56,343 nt of DNA, taken from positions 1 to 56,343 of IMG/VR virus record IMGVR_UViG_3300025396_000018. One strand, written 5' to 3'. The notes below the pieces were generated by a model that did no database searches, was not told where the DNA came from, and saw only the letters and a list, made by a program, of their open reading frames with translations. Made by a program: the position numbers and the translations under genes. The stretch comes from a virus. Taxonomy: Duplodnaviria; Caudoviricetes. Below, piece by piece: positions 1-56,343 of the stretch (the first letter of the stretch is position 1; each line of letters opens with the position of its first letter).

Positions 1-52
1 TCACGGCCATAATTTTACCACCTTCACCTACAAAAGTTGCTAAGTCTTTCAT
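1..52 (-). CDS. Hypothetical protein, 5' part only (MKDLATFVGEGGKIMAV...), runs off the window
   Basis: ATG at 52 overlaps the stop of the vWA gene (ATGA); frame is open to the window edge. Confidence 0.55.
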   Translation of the reverse strand, partial: MKDLATFVGEGGKIMAV

Positions 53-30535: not shown

Positions 30536-30568
30536 TATTTATTATACACACCTACCGGATGATGTCAA
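30536..30568 (-). promoter_or_regulatory. TTGACA-16-TATAAT promoter overlapped by a late-like AATAAATA
   Basis: Consensus hexamers at 30563-30568 and 30541-30546. Confidence 0.65.
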
Positions 30569-31661
30569 TGTTTGTATCATTAGTCCAGACTTCAACTGTT
30601 GTACGGAGGCGACCTTCTGCTTTAAGTGTTTCATATCGATTTGTTGCCTTCTGCTTCCACCACTCAACGATGTTGTTTAATTCATGTTTTTGATAGTTTT
30701 CACCTGGAATCAAAGTATCGGTTTTGCAATTCATGTAATCAACGGAATTCTTAAATCCATAATCTGAAGTATAATATCTTTTCTTTTCTGTCAACTTTTT
30801 GGCGTTCTCAATCGTTAAAGAGAATGCCTCCCCTTCAGGTGTACCTTTAAGTGCTGCTTTAGTTAAAGCAATAATTTTAGTAAAAGTTCTTAGTTTTCTA
30901 CTGGTAGTTGATGTATCACCTGCCAACAAATCTCCAGTAATATTCTCAACATAGTTCTTCAAATCATGGTATCTTTGACCGTGCATCATTGGTACGATAT
31001 CAGATTCAGTAAGACCACGAAAACGAATATATGGTTTCATGCCATCATATTGTGATACTGACTTGGTACTTCCGTATAGACTGGTAGTTTCAAATAGACA
31101 TACATTCATACCATATTTCTTATTGCACATTTCTCTTACAGTATGACTGGTACAAATGGCAGATAGAAGTTTACCACCTAGATAATTAAAACCGAATGGT
31201 TGACTTGGTACAATTACAAAACCCATAACACAAGCAGTATTGAATCGTTTGGCAGTATCCTCCTGCTGAATCCAGACCTGTCCTAAGAGTTCATTTCGAG
31301 GTTTCATATAGATTACTGGTGAACCTAACCGAATGAAACCTAGAATCTTTCCTGAGTTCTTCTCTTTGACAGCCAATTGTATATTCTTACCAACTGGTGC
31401 CTTATTGATGTGGGAACTGGTAATGGCAAGCAATGTTTCAAACTGAGCATTTGGTATTTCACAAACTTCAATATCCATATCTTTTGGATGTACCGAGAAA
31501 TCAGAAAACAAATCATCTTCTGGTGGAAACAATGAAGAAGGTAAATCTTCAAGGTTTTTTATCTTCTCATCACGCATATATTCTTCGGTACTTCCAATAT
31601 TACTAAAGTAATCGTGGAATACTTTGGAACAATGTAGTGCTTGTTCTCTAGTTAATATCAT
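30552..31661 (-). CDS. DUF4338 / DruA-like GNAT-related conserved protein
   Basis: LGFIRLGSP, IVPSQPFGFNYLGGKLL, ETTSLYG...SQYDG. Confidence 0.7.
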   Translation of the reverse strand: MILTREQALHCSKVFHDYFSNIGSTEEYMRDEKIKNLEDLPSSLFPPEDDLFSDFSVHPKDMDIEVCEIPNAQFETLLAITSSHINKAPVGKNIQLAVKEKNSGKILGFIRLGSPVIYMKPRNELLGQVWIQQEDTAKRFNTACVMGFVIVPSQPFGFNYLGGKLLSAICTSHTVREMCNKKYGMNVCLFETTSLYGSTKSVSQYDGMKPYIRFRGLTESDIVPMMHGQRYHDLKNYVENITGDLLAGDTSTTSRKLRTFTKIIALTKAALKGTPEGEAFSLTIENAKKLTEKKRYYTSDYGFKNSVDYMNCKTDTLIPGENYQKHELNNIVEWWKQKATNRYETLKAEGRLRTTVEVWTNDTNIDIIR

Positions 31662-39000: not shown

Positions 39001-39418
39001 TTCCGCTTTTGCTACAACTATTGCTGATTATCAGTTTAAGAGTCCTTCTTTAAATGGTAATGGGTACGGCGCATTTCAAATGGCATTGGAAAATGAGCAA
39101 TATGCTCGTTCACAGGCTATTCTTCAAGCTATGGAAGCTGCAAAGCAACAAGCAAAAGCAGATGCCGCCAATACACCAATCAATCAATTTCTAACAAACT
39201 TAGAATCCCGTATTTACGCTCAAATTTCACAGAACTTGGCAACTGCCATGTTTGCTGGTGGTTCATCTACTTCAGGTCAAATGAACTTTCAAGGTAACAC
39301 AATATTTTGGACTAATACAGGTACAAATATTCAATTACAAGTAACCGATAATGTCGGTAATATGACCACAATTAATGTGCCACTTGGCTCATTTAATATT
39401 ACAGGAAGTGGTCCATGA
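38951..39418 (+). CDS. csgF: Curli assembly protein CsgF-like
   Basis: Signal peptide ending AFA; YQFKSPSLNGNG resembles CsgF FQFRNPNFGGN; F..NLESRIY.Q; adjacent to csgG. Confidence 0.8.
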   Translation: MKINKILKSLVLALLSSSAFATTIADYQFKSPSLNGNGYGAFQMALENEQYARSQAILQAMEAAKQQAKADAANTPINQFLTNLESRIYAQISQNLATAMFAGGSSTSGQMNFQGNTIFWTNTGTNIQLQVTDNVGNMTTINVPLGSFNITGSGP

Positions 39419-40386
39419 AAAAATTATTGTTAATACTATCAGTTCTTATTCTTTCTGGTTGTGCTATTTCACAAAAAGCCGGCCAAATGGTTGGCGTTGA
39501 ACATGAGCCAAAAGTATTAGAGAACAAATTACAAAAAGAGTTCGATGAAATTCCACCACCATCTAAAGGCAGATTGGTTGTAGCAGTTTATCAATTCACA
39601 GATAAAACAGGACAACGTAAAGCTATTCCTGGTATCGCATCATTTAGTACCGCAGTTACACAAGGTGCTGATGCCTTATTGATTCGTTCATTACAAGATG
39701 TTGGTCATGGTAGATGGTTTGATGTAGTTGAGCGTGGTAACATTGATGCTCTTACTAAAGAACGTTTAATCATTACACAGATGCGACAAGCATATGAAGG
39801 TCCGCAAGCACAAAAATTAATGCCTTTAACTTTTGCTGGTATTATACTTGAAGGTGGTATTATTGGTTACGATACAGGTTTAGAATCAGGCGGATTAGGT
39901 TATAACTTTTTAGGTATTGGTCCAACAACACAATACAGTAAAGATATTATTACTGTTAGTTTAAGAGCAATATCAGTTAATACAGGTAAAGTATTGGCAA
40001 CTGTAACAGTTACAAAGATTGTTTATAGTACAGCAGATGCTATAGCAATTTTTAAAAGTATCGAACCAGGTGGAATAGGAAGTATGATATCACAGATTGG
40101 TGCACCCAACAATGGGTCGGTAAGTCCAACTGCGGCCATCTTTCAGTTTGAATCTGGTTTGACAATCAATGAGGCAACAACTATAGCATTAAAGACAACA
40201 ATTGAAGCAAGTGTGGTTGAATTAATTAAAGAAGGACAAAGAAAAGGTGTTTGGGATTATGGTACAATCATGGAAGCACAACCTAATCCAACCATCTCAG
40301 CAACGCCGAGTATTCCATTGGGTATGTCTAGTAAAAAAGACACGCCAGCGGATGTGGCAGCCAAGATGGGAGTAGTAAAACAATAA
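39415..40386 (+). CDS. csgG: Curli secretion channel CsgG-like lipoprotein
   Basis: ILSGC lipobox; VAVYQFTDKTGQRK, FSTAVTQGA, WFDVVER..L..ER..I, EGGIIGYD. Confidence 0.92.
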   Translation: MKKLLLILSVLILSGCAISQKAGQMVGVEHEPKVLENKLQKEFDEIPPPSKGRLVVAVYQFTDKTGQRKAIPGIASFSTAVTQGADALLIRSLQDVGHGRWFDVVERGNIDALTKERLIITQMRQAYEGPQAQKLMPLTFAGIILEGGIIGYDTGLESGGLGYNFLGIGPTTQYSKDIITVSLRAISVNTGKVLATVTVTKIVYSTADAIAIFKSIEPGGIGSMISQIGAPNNGSVSPTAAIFQFESGLTINEATTIALKTTIEASVVELIKEGQRKGVWDYGTIMEAQPNPTISATPSIPLGMSSKKDTPADVAAKMGVVKQ

Positions 40387-40395
40387 GGAAAAGAA

Positions 40396-41334
40396 ATGAA
40401 AAAGAGCTTAAAAGGCGCTGGCGGATTGTCGAGAAAATTATCCGCAATTCTAATGACAGCTGTAATGCTGTTGTCGGGACTGGCAGTAGCCGGAGATAAT
40501 ACCATTTATATCAATCAGTCAGGAAGCAATTCGACTATTGGTGTAACACAAAATGGTGCAGGTAATGCCGTAGAAGGAGTTCAGACTACTGGTTCAAGTG
40601 CAACTACGCCGGCAGTAATCAATGGCAATAGCAATCAAGTTACTGTTAATCAAGTTGGTACAGGTGATACTTTACAACTAGGTATTCAGACTACTGTTGC
40701 GAATGGTATTTCAAATGGTAACAATTATAGTTATTCTATTACAGGTAGCAACTCTACTGCTGTCATCAATAGTAACAATGATGGTTCTGGAACAAGTGCA
40801 AGCAACAATGTTAATGTAACTCAAACAGGTAACAACTCTAATTTGAATGTGAATATTTTAGGAACAGGAAACAATCTAACTGCAACAACTGCTGGCGGCA
40901 CAAACAATAGTGTGGTTGCAACTGTTAATGGTACAGGCAATAATGATACTGTTAATATGAATGGTGGCGGTTCAAATAGTTTTACTTTGAATCAAGGTAA
41001 TTCTACAACTGCTTCTACCACAAGTTCTGTTACATTGAATTCTACTGGTGCAAGCAACACATTTGGTATTACACAAAATGGTGGCACCAATGGCAATACT
41101 GTTACTGTTGGAGGTTATAGTGGATCTACTACAACACCAAGTGGTTCGTTAAATGGTTCTAGTAACTCTGTAACTGTTTCACAAACAGGTAATGCTGATA
41201 ATACATTTATTCTTGGTTTGACAGGAAGTACTAATACATTTAATGTTACACAAGGTGCTGCAACAGGTAATAACACCACAAATATCCAAAGTAGTGGCAG
41301 TAACAACACTTGGACTATTCATCAAACACATTGA
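40396..41334 (+). CDS. Secreted curlin-repeat (CsgA/CsgB-like) protein
   Basis: Signal peptide ending AVA; many N-x-x-x-[IV]-x-Q-x-G-x-x-N repeats; Asn/Gly/Thr/Ser-rich. Confidence 0.8.
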   Translation: MKKSLKGAGGLSRKLSAILMTAVMLLSGLAVAGDNTIYINQSGSNSTIGVTQNGAGNAVEGVQTTGSSATTPAVINGNSNQVTVNQVGTGDTLQLGIQTTVANGISNGNNYSYSITGSNSTAVINSNNDGSGTSASNNVNVTQTGNNSNLNVNILGTGNNLTATTAGGTNNSVVATVNGTGNNDTVNMNGGGSNSFTLNQGNSTTASTTSSVTLNSTGASNTFGITQNGGTNGNTVTVGGYSGSTTTPSGSLNGSSNSVTVSQTGNADNTFILGLTGSTNTFNVTQGAATGNNTTNIQSSGSNNTWTIHQTH

Positions 41335-41376
41335 TTGGAAAAACTATGATTACGCTCAAAGAACTGATTAAAGAAT

Positions 41377-42513
41377 ATGAAGAAAAGAATCCTGATAATA
41401 CTGAGTTTCTTGATTTTGCTGACTTGCTCAGTCCCCACATTAGCAGCGGTGGGGACAATAACGGAGCAAGTGAATACACCAGCATCAATACAAAGAGCTA
41501 AAACAACTTTAACCGGCACCAAAGGTACTGGTGTCGAAATGGAAGATGCCATCAATACCAAACAAGGTAAGGTTGGCATCATTTTTGCCGATAATACAAA
41601 AGTACAAGTAAATGAAAATTCTAAATTGGTCATTGATGAGTTCGTTTATGATCCAAAAAATAAAGGTGCTGGAAAACTGGCTCTCAATATGGCGGCCGGC
41701 ACGGTCCGTTATGCCAGCGGCGCCATCGCTCACGACAATCCTAATAAAGTTGCTATCAACACTCCTACCGCTACTGTGGCTGTCCGTGGTACTGATTTCA
41801 CAGCTACGGTTGATGAACTAGGTGCCAGTACAGTAATTTTATTACCTAGTTGTCCTACAAAAAATCCAATAGATGTTGAACATGAATGTAAAACAGGTAA
41901 GATTGAAGTAATCAATGATGGCGGTTCAGTTACATTAGACCAACCATTTCAAGCCACTAAAGTTACAGCTAGAAATGTGGCGCCCACAAAACCTGTTACA
42001 ATAAAATTAAATGAAGATAGTATTAATAATATGTTGATTCTTGCACCACCACAAGAAATTAAAAATGCTATTAAACAACGTGAAGATGAAAAACAAGGTG
42101 TGGTGACAGCGTTAAGCCAAAACTTCTTACAAGGTGTGGATTTAAGTAGTGTCTTGGCAGCAGAAAATTCTCAAATTTATACCAATGCTTTACAACGTAA
42201 TTTTTTAGACCAAGACTTTCTTGCAAATGTTTTACAATTATTGAATGAAGAACTATCACAAGAATTTGGCAATTTATTGGCACCACAAAAGAATAGTTTA
42301 TTGCCAGACTATAATTCTAAAACAGGTGTAGTGGCCACAGTCGATGCTATATCAGTTCAGTTGTGTCGGTCGGATGCAGGTAGTAATACTTCTTGTATCA
42401 CAACACCAAAAACACAAAACGCAACAGTAAGTCAAACACAATCAGGTAATGTAACTATTACTAACCGCATTAATGCCGGTGGTAATACTTTCATAACCAC
42501 CAAACAAAACTAA
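41377..42513 (+). CDS. Exported FecR-domain protein
   Basis: Signal peptide; F.DNTKVQVNENSKLVIDEFVYDP, TPTATVAVRGTDF. Confidence 0.85.
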   Translation: MKKRILIILSFLILLTCSVPTLAAVGTITEQVNTPASIQRAKTTLTGTKGTGVEMEDAINTKQGKVGIIFADNTKVQVNENSKLVIDEFVYDPKNKGAGKLALNMAAGTVRYASGAIAHDNPNKVAINTPTATVAVRGTDFTATVDELGASTVILLPSCPTKNPIDVEHECKTGKIEVINDGGSVTLDQPFQATKVTARNVAPTKPVTIKLNEDSINNMLILAPPQEIKNAIKQREDEKQGVVTALSQNFLQGVDLSSVLAAENSQIYTNALQRNFLDQDFLANVLQLLNEELSQEFGNLLAPQKNSLLPDYNSKTGVVATVDAISVQLCRSDAGSNTSCITTPKTQNATVSQTQSGNVTITNRINAGGNTFITTKQN

Positions 42514-43841
42514 TGAAAATATTATTCACATTTCTTCTTGCTGGATTATTAGGATTTTGTGCACCAAAATCTTATTCACAAACATCAGGATTAAATTATG
42601 TAACTTATGCTGGTACTGGTGCCACGCCAAATTATACAAACTTGGCATATCCAAATCCATTGAGTTCAGGTATAGTAAGTAATATTAATTACAATTGGGG
42701 TAGTGGTTATGTTTTAACATCAGGTCGTGTTGACCAAGTTATTATTCATTTTACTGGATACATCAATATACCTACTGCCGGAACATATACATTCGGGGGT
42801 AATGCAGATGACGGATTAGTTATAAGCATTAATAATACTACTATAATTAATAGTTGGCAAGAAGATGGTGGTAGTTTCAGACAAGGCAGTATTAATTTAC
42901 CTGCTGGCGCTGTTCCAATTAGTGTTTGGTATTATGAAAACGGTGGCGGTGCATTAGTCAATTTTCAATGGTATCAAAATAATAGTTGGCAGGTTGTTCC
43001 TTCCACAAGTTTGTATACCAGTATGCCGGCACCACAGTATACTAGTTCAATTACCGGCGGCCAGTCGGCTCAAGTTTCTTCAGTAGTCACTAGAATGTCC
43101 GGTGTTACTACTGCTTCATCAAATAGTATTTACATTAATCAAACAGGAAACGGTGATGTTATTAACATTACACAAGTTGGTTATGCTAACAAAATTGATG
43201 GTGCAAATTATAATAGTTCTACTGGAGTAGCAGGTTATCAACAGTCAGCACCTATTACTGGTGGTAGTAATAATATTACCATACGACAAGGTGATCCTAT
43301 GGCAAAAACAGGAAATAATTTAATAGATTTAGCTGCAATTGGTGGAAACAACACACTTAATTTAAATCAAGGTACAGATGTTAATGGAAATTATACAGGA
43401 TTAGACCAAGGCGGACACTATCAATTTGATTATATCAATGGCAGTTATAATAATATTACAGTAGTACAAGAAAATACTGGCGTATCAGGTAATCAATTTT
43501 CTAGTTTAGTAGTTATTGGTAATTTGAATACTGTTGGCATCACACAAACGGGTAATGCACAAAAACAATTATTTGCTAGTGTGACCGGTAATAGTAATAC
43601 AGTTACTACTAGTCAAACAGGAACAAGTAAAGATTATCTTAGTATAACCACCACAGGTAATGGTAACTCAGCAGTAGTTACTCAAAACAACAGTAGTGCT
43701 TCTGGTGCTAACGCTGCCACAATAGTTCTAAATAATGCAGGTGCACCAGCTTCAGTAAACGTAACACAAACTGGTGGACAAACATATAACATCACTCAAA
43801 CTTGTGTAACTACTTGTGGAACAGTAACGGTACGCCAATGA
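42513..43841 (+). CDS. Secreted PA14-domain plus curlin-repeat protein
   Basis: INYNWGSG...FTGYINIPTAGTYTF...ADDG...WYYENGGGA (PA14); C-terminal Q-x-G-x-x-N repeats. Confidence 0.82.
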   Translation: MKILFTFLLAGLLGFCAPKSYSQTSGLNYVTYAGTGATPNYTNLAYPNPLSSGIVSNINYNWGSGYVLTSGRVDQVIIHFTGYINIPTAGTYTFGGNADDGLVISINNTTIINSWQEDGGSFRQGSINLPAGAVPISVWYYENGGGALVNFQWYQNNSWQVVPSTSLYTSMPAPQYTSSITGGQSAQVSSVVTRMSGVTTASSNSIYINQTGNGDVINITQVGYANKIDGANYNSSTGVAGYQQSAPITGGSNNITIRQGDPMAKTGNNLIDLAAIGGNNTLNLNQGTDVNGNYTGLDQGGHYQFDYINGSYNNITVVQENTGVSGNQFSSLVVIGNLNTVGITQTGNAQKQLFASVTGNSNTVTTSQTGTSKDYLSITTTGNGNSAVVTQNNSSASGANAATIVLNNAGAPASVNVTQTGGQTYNITQTCVTTCGTVTVRQ

Positions 43842-43975
43842 TTATAGTTCAACTTCTTGGTGGAGTATTTGGTTGGTGCCTTGTATGGGCAATAGTATAT
43901 GTTTGCGATAAAAGAGAAGAATTAAAATTAGAGCGTGATTTGAAAAATATACGAAAACAATATGAAAAAAATTAG
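43838..43975 (+). CDS. Small membrane protein, 45 aa
   Basis: Hand-translated MIIVQLLGGVFGWCLVWAIVYVC plus charged tail; ATGA overlap. Confidence 0.55.
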   Translation: MIIVQLLGGVFGWCLVWAIVYVCDKREELKLERDLKNIRKQYEKN

Positions 43976-45974
43976 AAAGTTATTATTATCTCCGTTGACA
44001 GCTTTATTGACAATGGCATTATGTATTTGTGTTTTTGTTGATAAACCTGCTTTTGTTGAATCGGTAAAATACAGATATCTTGATACTGTAATTACTAGTA
44101 AACCAGTAACACAATCTAAAGATGTGGTGATTGTTAATATTGATGATGAAACTTTAAAACAAAAAGGTCAATTTCCTTTTCCAAGGGGCGAATATGCCAA
44201 AATTATCCGAGATTTGTATCAACGTGGTGCTGGGCTTGTTGTGTTTAATGTTTATATGCCTGATAACGATAGGTTTTTTCAGGATGATGCTTTGGCTAAC
44301 ACATTCAGGAAGTATCCAGTAATCCTTCCACAAGCTGGTTCTAATGACAAACAAGGTAGTGTTATTCCATTTAGACCTGGTGTTTCAGTAATTGGTGAAG
44401 GTTTTGCCGGAGTAGATTATAATTCAATTCAACCAAATGTAAAGGCCTTAAATGAAACAGCTGCTGGCATTGGTATTGTTAATACTTTCCCCGAAATTGA
44501 TGGCGTCACACGTCGTGTGCCAATGGTCGTACAGTCCCAAGGATTGTTATACCCTTCAATTAGTCTTGAAACCCTCAGAGTTGCATCAGGCGACCCAAGC
44601 TTCCAAGTTAAAATTGGCGAATACGGAATACAAGCGGTCAGAATTCCTAAATTTGGAAAAATCACCACAGATGCAGTCGGTAGAATTTGGGTCGATTGGT
44701 CAAGCAAACCAACAGAATATTCTTTATCAAAATTACCAGAGAACTTTAATAATTCCATCGTCATTGTCGGTCTCACAGCCAAAGGACTTAATAACCCCGT
44801 TGCAACAGCTACCGGTGCAGTCTATCCACATAATCTTCAAGCAGCAGTACTAAGTACTCTCATTTCAGGAACAAACATCTCCAGGCCTGATTGGGCTGAT
44901 GGAGGAGAGTTATTATACACAATTGCATTATGCTTAATAACTTTATTTTTTACAAGGTACACACATGGTTACATCGCAATCTTCTTTGTGGCAGGAATCA
45001 CCTATTTCGGAAGTCATGAACTATTTGATAGATACCAATACCTCATTGATATTACTTTCCCACTTTTCACCATATTTTTTACCTTCACACATGGATATGT
45101 TGTCAAATTTGTGTCTGAATGGTATCAAAAACAACAAATCAAAAAACAATTCGGAACATACCTCAGTCCCGCATTGGTCGAAAAACTCCAGAAAAATCCT
45201 GAACTTCTTACTCTCGGCGGAGAATCAAAAGAATTATCCATTATGTTCACCGATGTTAGAGGTTTCACTACAATCTCTGAGCATTATGGAAAAGATGTTC
45301 AAGGATTAACTAAGATTATGAATCGTTATATGACTGCTATGACGAAAAAGATTTTAGAAAACAATGGTACATTAGACAAATATATTGGTGACGCACAGAT
45401 GGCATTTTGGAATGCTCCTGTTGATGAACCTAATCATGCAAAGATGGCGGTTAAAACTGCATTACAAATGATGGAGAGTTTAGATGAATTCAATACTGAA
45501 ATTACTAAAGAAGGCATTCCACCTTTTGGTATGGGTTTGGGTATTAACACCGGGGTCGTTGTTGTGGGTAATATGGGGTCTGAGCAACGTTTTGACTATA
45601 CCTGCCTCGGTGATACAGTCAATCTCGCATCTCGTCTTGAAGGTCAATCAAAGCCTTATGGAGTTCGCATTGTCCTTGGTACATTAACCGCAGAACAAGT
45701 GAGGGACGAATATCCTGTTGTTGAATTGGATTGTATTGCTGTTAAGGGTAAAACAGAAGGTGTAAAGATATTTACTTTAGGTAAACCTAATTATAAACAT
45801 CAAACGTACTTAGATTGTTACTACTCTGGTGACTGGACTAAAGCAAAGAAACTCTGTAAAGAATTGATTGAAGAAAACAATGAATTGAATCAATACTACA
45901 AGAATATGTTAGAAAGGCTGGAAGAAGGTCTTCCAGCCAATTGGGATGGTACTTATCGTGCTACTTCTAAGTAA
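43962..45974 (+). CDS. CHASE2-domain class III adenylate cyclase
   Basis: TM-CHASE2 (VIVNIDDETL...FPFPR, DGVTRRVP)-TMs-cyclase (FTDVRGFT, DKYIGDA, DYTCLGDTVNLASRLE). Confidence 0.93.
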   Translation: MKKIRKLLLSPLTALLTMALCICVFVDKPAFVESVKYRYLDTVITSKPVTQSKDVVIVNIDDETLKQKGQFPFPRGEYAKIIRDLYQRGAGLVVFNVYMPDNDRFFQDDALANTFRKYPVILPQAGSNDKQGSVIPFRPGVSVIGEGFAGVDYNSIQPNVKALNETAAGIGIVNTFPEIDGVTRRVPMVVQSQGLLYPSISLETLRVASGDPSFQVKIGEYGIQAVRIPKFGKITTDAVGRIWVDWSSKPTEYSLSKLPENFNNSIVIVGLTAKGLNNPVATATGAVYPHNLQAAVLSTLISGTNISRPDWADGGELLYTIALCLITLFFTRYTHGYIAIFFVAGITYFGSHELFDRYQYLIDITFPLFTIFFTFTHGYVVKFVSEWYQKQQIKKQFGTYLSPALVEKLQKNPELLTLGGESKELSIMFTDVRGFTTISEHYGKDVQGLTKIMNRYMTAMTKKILENNGTLDKYIGDAQMAFWNAPVDEPNHAKMAVKTALQMMESLDEFNTEITKEGIPPFGMGLGINTGVVVVGNMGSEQRFDYTCLGDTVNLASRLEGQSKPYGVRIVLGTLTAEQVRDEYPVVELDCIAVKGKTEGVKIFTLGKPNYKHQTYLDCYYSGDWTKAKKLCKELIEENNELNQYYKNMLERLEEGLPANWDGTYRATSK

Positions 45975-48114: not shown

Positions 48115-48173
48115 ATAAATTTTAGTTATTGCCTTTATGATATGTTTTGATGATTGTTATTAAGAAAATCAAT
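48115..48173. promoter_or_regulatory. OxyR/LysR-like phased operator
   Basis: ATAA-N7-TTAT-N7-ATGA-N7-TGAT-N7-ATTA-N7-CAAT upstream of rubrerythrin. Confidence 0.4.
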
Positions 48174-48383
48174 TATTGAGGATACTGTCGTGTGTTTAAT
48201 AGGCGTGTCGTAGATTAAGCGTTTAAGGCCATTCTTTCGAACTCTACCACCGCCTACCCCAGCTTACAGCTTCCTTCCGTTCTCAGCATACGGAAAATCT
48301 CCAGATATTGGATCATACCGCCGGGGTGTTGATGTTCCTTGACAGTTAGGATTGCTTATCCTTTACCGCACATCCTCAATAAT
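48171..48383 (-). ncRNA. Structured RNA of about 210 nt, family unknown
   Basis: 13-bp terminal inverted repeat plus several internal helices and a GAAA tetraloop. Confidence 0.6.
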
Positions 48384-48459
48384 TGGCTCCAAAGGCTGGG
48401 CTCGAACCAGCGACCAAATGATTAACAGTCATCTACTCTACCAACTGAGCTACTTCGGA
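48384..48459 (-). tRNA. tRNA-Asn(GTT)
   Basis: 76-nt cloverleaf; CT-GTT-AA; encoded CCA. Confidence 0.95.
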
Positions 48460-48466
48460 ATAAAAC

Positions 48467-48540
48467 TGGAGCGGGATATTGGAATCGAACCAATGTTATC
48501 AGTTTGGAAAACTGAAGTCCTACCATTAAACGAATCCCGC
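48467..48540 (-). tRNA. tRNA-Gly(TCC)
   Basis: 74-nt cloverleaf; TT-TCC-AA; U73-CCA. Confidence 0.95.
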
Positions 48541-48541
48541 A

Positions 48542-48608
48542 TGGAGCGGAGTGATGCTTTGCTCACCTAACAAAAGATGGTATCTTTTATCGTACTATTA
48601 CTCTCCGC
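48542..48608 (-). ncRNA. 67-nt tRNA-Gly-like RNA with non-canonical D and T arms and ACC at the hairpin apex
   Basis: GCGGAG/CTCCGC-T-CCA acceptor; 10-bp central hairpin. Confidence 0.65.
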
Positions 48609-48617
48609 ATATGTAAT

Positions 48618-48646
48618 ACTATAACATCTTAATTATAAGAAGTCAA
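48618..48646 (-). promoter_or_regulatory. Sigma70-type promoter TTGACT-17-TATAGT
   Basis: Directly upstream of the tRNA-like RNA / Gly / Asn block. Confidence 0.8.
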
Positions 48647-48668
48647 TACAAAAGTTTGGTATATTTGA

Positions 48669-48742
48669 TGGTGCCCCAGCACAGAATCGAACTGCGAATT
48701 GATGATTACAAATCAACTGTTATACCATTTAACTACAAGGGC
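48669..48742 (-). tRNA. tRNA-Thr(TGT)
   Basis: 74-nt cloverleaf; TT-TGT-AA; encoded CCA. Confidence 0.92.
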
Positions 48743-55950: not shown

Positions 55951-56343
55951 TTATCGACCAACTTGTGGTAAATATTTTGCTTTGGTTTCTTCCCATGATA
56001 GGTAAATCAAATCATCATAGAAAAGAGTTTCATATGAAACATTGCCTTTTTTCTGTAATTGCCGAATACGACCTTTGGCATACTTTGTTTTCCAAATGGT
56101 AGACAATGCTTCTTCACTGGTATCAAACGACTTTACCAAATCTTTATCTGTAATTTCTTTACGGAGAAATTCATTGGTATTATTATAAAGTGGACTAAAG
56201 TAAATACCACGTTGGTGTTCGGTACGAATCAATTCTTTTGGTATTTTTAGTTGTGAATAAGCAAAGTTTAAAGACCTATTCTTATGGTCACGTTTTAATG
56301 GAAGTCCTTGTGGATTTTTTGCTTCCCACCATTGAAAATATTT
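55951..56343 (-). CDS. C-terminal part of a conserved protein (possibly a second DUF4338-like gene); starts outside the window
   Basis: Frame open to the window edge (KYFQWWEAKNPQGLPLKRDHKNRSL...HQRGIYFSPLY). Confidence 0.65.
   Translation of the reverse strand, partial: KYFQWWEAKNPQGLPLKRDHKNRSLNFAYSQLKIPKELIRTEHQRGIYFSPLYNNTNEFLRKEITDKDLVKSFDTSEEALSTIWKTKYAKGRIRQLQKKGNVSYETLFYDDLIYLSWEETKAKYLPQVGR

Follow-up and report, generated by a model that had tools for sequence, protein, structure and literature searches.

Background

Transfer RNA (tRNA) genes of phages are usually explained by codon supply and, lately, by the replacement of tRNAs that host defences have cleaved. Here we describe a 67-nt element with the outline of a miniature glycine tRNA (tRNA-Gly), located at positions 48542 to 48608 on the minus strand of the IMG/VR record IMGVR_UViG_3300025396_000018 (Duplodnaviria; Caudoviricetes). 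The whole 56,343-nt stretch was analysed and is referred to below as the window; it is a T4-like phage fragment of 56 kb (approximately 34% of a genome by CheckV) from an uncultured freshwater phage. Comparison of related sequences marks the element as a genuine gene, single-copy in an uncultured clade of T4-like phages from fresh water, and predicted to encode a compact RNA derived from tRNA-Gly.

Several described RNAs come close to such an element. Staphylococcus possesses non-proteinogenic tRNA-Gly species that serve as glycine donors for FemXAB; altered in the D loop and T arm, they are withheld from EF-Tu and the ribosome, and they are full-size canonical cloverleaves in a Gram-positive bacterium with Fem transferases. 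Inside the T4-type tRNA cluster lie rnaC and rnaD (species 1 and 2), small stable non-tRNA RNAs of 139 and 119 nt that are not known to have an assigned function. A third comparison is offered by the compact-core tRNAs, namely pyrrolysine tRNA (tRNAPyl) and mammalian mitochondrial tRNA-Ser(UCN) (mt-tRNA-Ser(UCN)), whose elongated anticodon stem has 6 bp, whose variable region measures 3 nt, and whose D loop, 4-5 nt long, lacks GG; they have a 0-1-nt linker between acceptor and D stems and a non-canonical T loop, and a 7/5 acceptor/T helix, U33 and A37 accompany decoding on the ribosome (PMC7609411).

The bacterial glycine identity set, comprising U73, G1-C72, C2-G71, C35 and C36, has been defined experimentally (PMC9976931), and use of aminoacyl-tRNA outside the ribosome, in cell-wall synthesis, is also mentioned (PMC9976931, PMC13219725). 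A number of proteins other than glycyl-tRNA synthetase (GlyRS) read the same end of the molecule: FaRel2, a toxSAS enzyme linked to antiphage immunity, selects tRNA-Gly and tRNA-Thr via acceptor pairs 1, 2, 4 and 5, a minihelix being sufficient as substrate, and toxSAS enzymes act on uncharged CCA ends (PMC11559606); the GNAT toxin TacT reads U73 and G71 (PMC9976931); AtaT2 is specific for Gly-tRNA-Gly (PMC11559606); and Mom of phage Mu uses Gly-tRNA-Gly as glycine donor, probably reading the acceptor end (PMC13219725). Finally, 8,495 candidate structured RNAs, some of them termed 'tRNA-like', were predicted from IMG/VR in 2023 (PMC10690425). The element described here is absent from the literature searched and from Rfam 15, though the supplements to PMC10690425 could list the motif.

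Methods

All sequences compared are metagenome contigs. Exact 16-17-mers of the element retrieved only identical copies from IMG/VR, and searches were therefore anchored on the open reading frame (ORF) of 167 aa upstream of it, giving 80 related loci, which were compared with the element by blastn. The class-1 set (homologues of the 67-nt design) was gathered partly by sequence pattern, using a degenerate 18-letter pattern followed by a regular expression that located the 3' end and allowed any base at the discriminator. Because the pattern fixed 14 of the first 18 positions, invariance within those 18 is partly imposed; it permitted mismatched combinations at pair 10-15, none of which was seen. 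A covariance model (R1) was built from the resulting alignment (A1) and run over 79 protein-anchored loci and the window. The Mom family identifier used in searches for partner proteins (PF25680) was taken from Mu's own Mom gene.

Results and discussion

Conservation and covariation of the element

Full-length homologues were recovered by blastn in 45 of the 80 protein-anchored loci, amounting to 25 distinct sequences of 70-100% identity with almost no indels. The degenerate pattern matched at least 117 IMG/VR contigs, and over all loci collected there were 155 instances, of which one without a 3' end was dropped; the remaining 154 reduce to 60 distinct sequences (alignment A1). Standard pairs fill 98.8% of the 1,200 pair cells of A1, a value that falls to 26-61% when the 3' partners are slid by 1-3 columns. 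Double-sided changes are found in 11 of the 20 pairs, and every helix contains at least one covarying pair (acceptor pair 5, D pair 10-15, seven pairs of the long stem, and two of the T stem). The number of double-changed cells was 146, compared to 39.4 +/- 4.6 in shuffles (reached by 0 of 500). Such cell counts are inflated by kinship of the sequences, an effect that is smaller for the slid controls and for measures at the level of pairs and pair types. Acceptor pair 5 occurs as U-A in 51 variants, A-U in 8 and U-G in one, D pair 10-15 as A-U in 36 and G-C in 24, and the pair 32-38, which is always Watson-Crick, as A-U in 51 and G-C in 9. RNAalifold, given no structure beforehand, predicts the same cloverleaf as that described below.

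At E<=1, model R1 returned 72 matches, consisting of 47 class-1 elements (84-95 bits), 21 weaker matches of 67-70 nt (23-49 bits), and four canonical tRNA-Gly genes (21-23 bits); the element of the window scored 84.2 bits (E = 2.7e-21).

A preliminary description of the window had proposed a selected, remodelled mimic of tRNA-Gly rather than decay, and this is borne out by compensatory changes in four helices, by a single copy in five of five large relatives, and by presence in 65 of 79 loci. It had also named, among the marks of a pseudo-tRNA, the absence of homologues with compensatory changes; the homologues found carry such changes in all four helices, so that this mark does not refute the proposal.

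Fold and anatomy

The minimum-free-energy (MFE) fold of the single sequence 48608..48542 (minus strand) is a four-helix cloverleaf of -18 kcal/mol (z = -2.98), an energy equalled by one of 200 shuffles. It is conservation with compensatory changes that places the element beyond chance, the fold energy alone being insufficient. The parts of the element are as follows:

48542..48608, minus strand: 67-nt tRNA-Gly-like RNA gene (class 1), defined by sequence, cloverleaf MFE fold, covariance model R1 and covariation in 60 homologues
48603..48608, minus strand: 5' strand of the acceptor stem, positions 1-6 (GCGGAG), pairing with 48546-48551; pairs 1-4 and 6 invariant
48592..48601, minus strand: mini D hairpin with a 3-bp stem and loop AUAG, without a linker to the acceptor stem; pair 10-15 covaries
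48569..48591, minus strand: long 'anticodon' hairpin, comprising G18.U40, a 7-bp stem, the pair 32-38 and the loop; double changes in all seven stem pairs
48579..48581, minus strand: ACC at anticodon positions 34-36; C35 and C36 invariant in 60 of 60
48553..48567, minus strand: T-like hairpin with a 4-bp stem and 7-nt loop AGCAAAG, without T-Psi-C; two stem pairs covary
48546..48551, minus strand: the acceptor stem's 3' strand (CTCCGC), from alignment A1 and covariation
48542..48545, minus strand: discriminator U and encoded CCA; U-CCA in all 60 class-1 and all 20 class-2 variants

The acceptor stem of the window element thus has 6 bp, including G1-C, C2-G and G3-C, followed by U and CCA. A seventh acceptor position (48602) pairs with position 57 (48552) in just 11 of the 60 variants. 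In the family, the long hairpin consists of a 7-bp stem together with an invariant G18.U40 and an always-complementary 32-38 pair, leaving a 5-nt loop, N33-N34-C35-C36-N37; the exchange of A-U for G-C at 32-38 argues that this pair really forms, thereby closing the loop to 5 nt. Two linker bases, UA, separate the long hairpin from the T hairpin as a 2-nt variable region. The T loop of the family is AGCAWAG, in which G-C-A is invariant in class 1 and in the second class described below, as is the D loop AUAG. The sole remaining possible elbow pair, between the G of the D loop and the C of the T loop, is invariant and hence offers no covariation to test.

The 67-nt cloverleaf with the arms given in the preliminary description is reproduced by the MFE fold, as is a T arm without TTCG, the T loop being AGCAAAG. 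A 10-bp hairpin topped by an ACC triloop, likewise claimed there, is correct for the MFE fold of the window's element but does not extend to the family, in which the loop has 5 nt; of the 60 variants, 58 have C at position 37 and two have A, the window's being one of these two. The 10-bp stem with triloop is therefore one particular, local form of what in the family is a 9-layer helix and a loop of 5 nt. The ACC apex as a conserved feature did not hold, since position 34 is A in 45 variants, U in 12, C in two and G in one.

Glycine identity and decoding features

The ends GCGG/CCGC, U73, CCA, C35 and C36 are invariant in 60 of 60 class-1 and 20 of 20 class-2 variants, in agreement with the glycine identity elements assigned to the element earlier. 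The same invariant ends, together with C35 and C36, are seen in the 25 variants collected by blastn without any pattern. Hence the features used by GlyRS are present (U73, G1-C72, C2-G71, as well as G3-C70, C35 and C36), with the anticodon bases in a probably closed 5-nt loop. The features associated with decoding, on the other hand, are lost or variable, including U33, the purine at 37, the open 7-nt loop, the 5-bp anticodon stem, G18G19 and T-Psi-C. At position 33, U occurs in 50 class-1 variants, C in nine and A in one, and G in all 20 class-2 variants. The canonical tRNAs of these phage loci served as a control: of 385 distinct sequences, U33 is present in 383, a purine at 37 in 378, and A-U or G-C at 32-38 in none.

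The invariant parts coincide with those read by bacterial GlyRS and by other tRNA-Gly-specific readers of the acceptor end. The identity bases are constant, unlike pair 5 and most other stem pairs. Read most simply, this constancy means that the RNA would have to be recognised by GlyRS or by another protein specific to the acceptor end of tRNA-Gly.

A 70-nt sister class

A related design of 70 nt (class 2) has the same ends (GCGG...CCGC-U-CCA), the D loop AUAG, a 7-bp stem, a 5-bp T stem with loop UGCRAAU, and an anticodon loop UGUCCAA, containing G33, UCC and the combination U32-A38. A scan with a class-2 15-mer matched 80 contigs, and 68 full instances among the collected loci reduce to 20 distinct sequences. 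These are 91% paired, and three T-stem pairs covary; double-changed cells and covariation score lie above all 500 shuffles, while the number of pair types was as high in 460 of 500 shuffles because the set is shallow. ARAGORN made no call on class 2 and RF00005, the Rfam tRNA model, gave no match at E<=10.

Class 2 occupies the slot of class 1, with the same promoter ahead and the same genes downstream. The two occur in tandem at three loci (L061:5916-6058, L082:6811-6954, and L178), with 6-8 nt between them and a single promoter or ORF end ahead, and two sequences of intermediate appearance exist (L052:11977-12046 and L086:7074-7140). Common to both classes are the top of the acceptor stem, U73, CCA, CC at 35-36, the long closed stem, AUAG, and G-C-A of the T loop, and these shared features are probably the ones that matter. 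We place the family among tRNA-derived mimics and non-canonical tRNAs, with two sub-classes.

Comparison with described RNAs

With canonical tRNA-Gly (RF00005, represented by the neighbouring tRNA-Gly(UCC) and by T4 tRNA-Gly) the element shares a four-helix cloverleaf, a place in a phage tRNA cluster, the pairs G1-C72, C2-G71, G3-C70 and G4-C69, U73, an encoded CCA, and NCC at 34-36. Model R1 matches the canonical gene weakly, at 21-23 bits in four loci, and T4 tRNA-Gly at 13.7 bits. In contrast to the canonical 74 nt, however, the element has 67 nt, without a U8/N9 linker and with a 2-nt variable region; its D arm is reduced to 3 bp and 4 nt without G18G19; its anticodon stem has 7 bp with a Watson-Crick 32-38 pair and C37; and its T stem has 4 bp, with AGCAWAG replacing T-Psi-C-R-A and the seventh acceptor pair mostly mismatched. 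Measured against a canonical tRNA it therefore has the cloverleaf with acceptor stem, discriminator and CCA, and departs in model score, loop rules and elbow motifs. The element evidently descends from tRNA-Gly.

The 7-bp anticodon stem, 0-nt linker, 4-nt D loop, 2-nt variable region and non-canonical T loop follow the pattern of compact-core tRNAs. Nonetheless, by description the element is set apart from these by an anticodon stem of 7(+1) bp, an acceptor/T helix of 6(+mismatch)/4, C37, a closed loop, glycine identity, and a phage origin, and its NCC anticodon with a glycine-type acceptor differs from the pairing of PylRS with CUA or that of SerRS; no phage gene resembling an aminoacyl-tRNA synthetase was found in the five records searched. 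It resembles compact-core tRNAs in architecture, but is not one of them. The likeness to the Staphylococcus glycine donors is one of idea only, that is, of a GlyRS-charged species used outside translation; the body of the element is far more reduced, and FemAB is absent from five of five records. T4 rnaC and rnaD, although alike in being small RNAs within a T4-type tRNA cluster, have no glycine identity set. When R1 was run with filters off over T4 69000-75000 (E<=10) there was no match at rnaC or rnaD, the tRNA-Gly alone being matched, weakly, at 13.7 bits; by this model test the element is evidently not homologous to either. ARAGORN found no tmRNA in the window or in the relative G004, and at only 67 nt the element is not one.

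The element is likewise passed over by standard searches. It is uncalled by ARAGORN in the bacterial, relaxed (-ps) and metazoan-mitochondrial modes, and Rfam yielded no match at E<=10 either in 4 kb or with 81 nt alone. Among GenBank phages (50,697 records), no homologue was found by blastn with the window region or, at E<=1, with the commonest variant. A prokaryote genome collection gave 61 pattern matches, 0 with the full element, which were treated as chance.

Promoters, copy number and distribution

A promoter of the form TTGMCN-16..18-TANNNT precedes the element in 61 of 90 distinct contexts, ending 8 nt (12 contexts) or 9 nt (49 contexts) from G1. Given this spacing of 8-9 nt, the first base of the RNA would lie no more than about 2 nt from the transcription start. 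At other loci the element has no promoter of its own and comes after an ORF or after a class-2 copy. What lies downstream is variable: tRNA-Gly(UCC) at 1-9 nt, rubrerythrin, or an ORF that is small and basic, GroES-like, or 460 aa long. Accordingly, the statement that the element comes first behind its own promoter and beside tRNA-Gly is accurate for the window and is no rule of the family. Elements of the UCC type share their locus with a canonical tRNA-Gly(UCC), and lie directly ahead of it in several loci.

Each of five large relatives (G001-G005, four of them complete by CheckV) has exactly one copy, and a family member is present in 65 of 79 protein-anchored loci; 13 of the 14 loci without one have less than 1.8 kb of downstream flank. 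The canonical tRNA load of close relatives ranges from 6-7 (G004) to 34 (G003), while the mini-tRNA stays single-copy. In G001, G002, G003 and G005 it is retained beside 25-34 canonical tRNAs, among which Gly(GCC) and Gly(UCC) are both represented. In G003 the element is approximately 74 kb from the main tRNA cluster and begins 20 nt after an ORF; it is directly followed by a 13-bp hairpin and T run (an intrinsic terminator), and then by a new promoter. Since that copy stands alone before a terminator, it would be a trans-acting RNA gene there and not a leader.

Several neighbouring genes were considered as possible partners and set aside. In 34 of 91 distinct contexts (e.g. L063:7531-7692, L034, L036, and L083) the element is followed, after approximately 20-30 nt or, at a few loci, at a greater distance, by a small and very basic ORF of 46-84 aa with a conserved core (NPMLTK.GKPRLGPLN); the window lacks this ORF, and no PHROG matches it. 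The upstream 167-aa ORF, which contains HExxH and matches only PHROGs of unknown function, lies anywhere from 52 nt to 5.5 kb off, and is absent near the element in G003. Every relative searched (G001-G005) carries two ORFs matching the Druantia DruA family PF14236, one of approximately 420-450 aa (68-77 bits) and another of approximately 370 aa (33-38 bits). In the window the smaller is found at 30552-31661 (-) and the C-terminal end of the larger at 55951-56343 (-), and a further coordinate is L359:1522-2862. The larger DruA-like ORF ends 20 nt before the element in G003 alone, and is 10-16 kb off in the other relatives, so that a link was not retained.

In L036, L049, L211, L052 and L050 the approximately 50 nt immediately ahead of the element hold, instead of a promoter, a recurrent G+C-rich motif ending ...GTAACCGGTAAGCAGGA; this may represent the 3' terminus of a further structured RNA or of a mobile element.

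Favoured reading and rival explanations

We favour, at a probability of roughly 45%, a tRNA-Gly-derived, glycine-accepting mimic that would act in trans outside ordinary decoding, as a decoy or as a glycine donor. The proposed course of events would begin with early transcription by host RNA polymerase from the consensus promoter, starting at or within about 2 nt of G1. The transcript would then undergo tRNA-like trimming, its encoded CCA being exposed either by RNase P, cutting where the next tRNA begins, or by 3' trimming. Charging with glycine by host GlyRS would follow, after which the RNA would act in trans, presenting a tRNA-Gly acceptor end insulated from the translating pool. Its most likely role, by analogy, would be that of a decoy or competitive substrate for host toxins that choose tRNA-Gly by its acceptor stem (FaRel2, TacT, AtaT2); alternatively, it could be a dedicated glycine donor for an aminoacyl-tRNA-dependent transferase not yet recognised as such. 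FaRel2, TacT, AtaT2 and Mu Mom recognise what the element keeps invariant (CCA, U73, G71, and the top acceptor pairs), and as proteins they are candidate partners, not relatives of it. The preliminary description had suggested a nuclease decoy, a glycyl donor or a synthetase sponge; these are candidate roles, and no Fem-, Mom- or GlyRS-type partner encoded by the phages was found in the records searched. A more ambitious version, in which the element is an RNA counter-defence gene, a miniaturised, translation-excluded tRNA-Gly, either still charged by host GlyRS or resembling tRNA-Gly at its acceptor end, that absorbs or blocks toxSAS and GNAT toxins, with the 67- and 70-nt designs as the trace of an arms race, strikes us as unlikely.

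A number of observations weigh against the favoured reading. GlyRS would have to accept C35 and C36 in a closed 5-nt loop on a 9-layer helix, and a catalytic toxin is hard to titrate by a substrate. FaRel2 needs purine-pyrimidine at 5-68 (PMC11559606), and because that pair is U-A in 51 of 60 variants it would fit a minority only, the window included. Searches of four complete relatives and the window for partner genes were largely negative, with FemAB (PF02388) and Acetyltransf_6 (PF13480) in 0 of 5 records (the positive control being detected in each case), the class II aminoacyl-tRNA synthetase core and GlyQ in 0 of 5, and GNAT PF00583 in just 2 of 5. Mom PF25680 was found in none of five relatives (four complete) and not in the window, in a search whose control set held no true positive. 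In favour of decoding, the predominant anticodon ACC fits GGT, the main glycine codon (61% in the window, 56% in G004), and normal ribosomes do use compact tRNAs, tRNAPyl among them (PMC7609411). A Mom-type partner was dropped as far as it rested on PF25680, as was GNAT PF00583 as a consistent partner. A GNAT ORF (PF00583, 39 bits) does occur at G004:84043-84258 (L356), approximately 1.3 kb before the G004 tRNA cluster.

The points on codon use and compact tRNAs lead directly to the rival explanation of a genuine compact-core decoding tRNA-Gly, a 'stealth' isoacceptor that would escape tRNA-targeting defences because all that glycylation and GGN reading can spare has been altered, and that would read GGN largely through two strong G-C pairs. 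In this case the intact glycine identity set with C35 and C36, the position among tRNA genes with a CCA encoded like that of the neighbours and 1-9 nt to the next tRNA, and the predominance of ACC among the forms of the element alongside GGT at 56-61% of glycine codons would all be accounted for. If two-out-of-three reading applies, the variation at position 34 is tolerable. The layout, moreover, parallels tRNAPyl (especially that of M. alvus) and mt-tRNA-Ser(UCN), which are L-shaped and used in translation (PMC7609411), and phage tRNAs have been reported to evade anticodon nucleases via changes in the anticodon loop (PMC10264068). Nevertheless, the loop breaks the rules followed by the 385 canonical tRNAs of the same loci, with C37 in 58 of 60, C or A at position 33 in 10 of 60 class-1 and G in 20 of 20 class-2 variants, and a 32-38 pair whose covariation implies closure to 5 nt; the T stem has 4 bp, the seventh acceptor pair is mostly mismatched, and T54-Psi55 is lacking. 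In four of five large genomes such a tRNA would be redundant with canonical Gly(GCC) and Gly(UCC), UCC variants lie beside tRNA-Gly(UCC) itself, and position 34 drifts through four bases. On account of the broken loop rules, this redundancy and the drift at position 34, we regard simple decoding as improbable. Comparably doubtful is an uncharged tRNA-shaped small RNA, whose C-rich pentaloop or odd elbow would bind a protein or G-rich RNA, or which would titrate a CCA-end enzyme. Ancestry in tRNA-Gly would give such an RNA a stable scaffold and processing signals (RNase P, CCA), an N-N-C-C-C loop on a long helix is conserved, the non-canonical D loop AUAG and the T-loop G-C-A are invariant in both classes, strong early-type promoters are common, and G003 holds a stand-alone gene with its own terminator; toxSAS enzymes, for their part, use uncharged CCA ends and accept minihelices (PMC11559606). 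Yet RNase P and generic CCA readers need none of G1-C72, C2-G71, G3-C70 and U73, all of which are invariant. The class-2 loop, moreover, is GUCCA and not CCC, so that only CC, the glycine anticodon bases, is common to both classes, and a look by eye, without computation, revealed no complementary target in downstream leaders or Shine-Dalgarno sequences.

The remaining explanations dispense with a glycine-specific RNA altogether. A cis-acting tRNA-like 5' leader or punctuation element, which would set transcript ends and stabilise or help process the downstream tRNA or mRNA, suits the 61 of 90 distinct contexts that begin 8-9 nt after the -10 hexamer and the varied downstream cargo (tRNA-Gly, small basic ORF, GroES-like ORF, or rubrerythrin). 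It is disfavoured by stand-alone copies, as in G003-type genomes with a terminator directly after the element and no cargo, and by copies that follow an ORF or class-2 copy without a promoter of their own; moreover, it leaves the conservation of glycine-specific bases and loop unexplained, and we consider it very improbable. The reading as a decaying pseudo-tRNA-Gly or chance fold, which would agree with the rejection of the element by tRNA finders and Rfam, is already refuted by covariation, copy number and RNAalifold: 11-12 pairs show compensatory changes, a covariation reached by 0 of 500 shuffles, and the element is single-copy in five of five genomes and found on at least 117 IMG/VR contigs.

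Gene neighbourhood in the window

The window carries a T4-like gene set that includes PolB, a gp44-type clamp loader, RNase H, ribonucleotide reductase, rubrerythrin, SpeD and Hsp20, and its PolB is approximately 51% identical to that of T4-like cyanophages, the closest isolates by PolB. Around the element ARAGORN calls tRNA-Thr, tRNA-Gly(UCC), tRNA-Asn and tRNA-Met, and the immediate neighbours are:

48669..48742, minus strand: canonical tRNA-Thr(UGU), upstream of the promoter (ARAGORN, Rfam)
48618..48646, minus strand: putative sigma-70-type promoter TTGACT-17-TG-TATAGT (TTGACT-17-TGnTATAGT), matching at 10 of 12 positions; 9 nt separate its -10 hexamer from G1
48467..48540, minus strand: canonical tRNA-Gly(UCC), after a 1-nt spacer from the CCA of the element (ARAGORN; Rfam tRNA, 63 bits)
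48384..48459, minus strand: canonical tRNA-Asn(GUU), next in the cluster (ARAGORN, Rfam)

From this arrangement the element and tRNA-Gly(UCC) are probably on one transcript. One metatranscriptome run (0.06 share of words) provided two contigs, which, not being reads, speak neither for nor against expression; one of these spans 48589-48742 and, having passed through tRNA-Thr and the promoter, breaks off 20 nt into the element.

Two further parts of the window were noted. Between tRNA-Asn and the rubrerythrin gene lies a 309-nt spacer with a whole-spacer MFE of -73.9 kcal/mol, within which approximately 212 nt (48172-48383, minus strand) are richer in G+C and closed by a 12-bp helix; parts of this stretch recur in approximately 70 related loci by blastn, with no Rfam match at E<=10, and it may be another structured RNA of the tRNA cluster. 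On the opposite strand, a block at 39415-45974 (+) encodes FecR-like, PA14 and CHASE2-adenylate/guanylate cyclase proteins, which is unusual cargo for a T4-like phage.

Conclusions

The phages described here conserve a gene that keeps the glycine-identity parts of a tRNA and sheds its decoding parts, beside canonical glycine tRNAs. Phage tRNA censuses overlook the family because it is invisible to ARAGORN and the Rfam tRNA model; covariance model R1 makes it findable. Should the element decode after all, the bacterial ribosome would accept a 67-nt tRNA with a 7-bp anticodon stem and C37, which would be of relevance for minimal tRNA design and orthogonal translation. If instead it is charged and non-decoding, it would be the first phage-encoded non-translational aminoacyl-RNA, whether decoy or donor, and would offer a direct handle on the host toxins and enzymes that read the acceptor end of tRNA-Gly.

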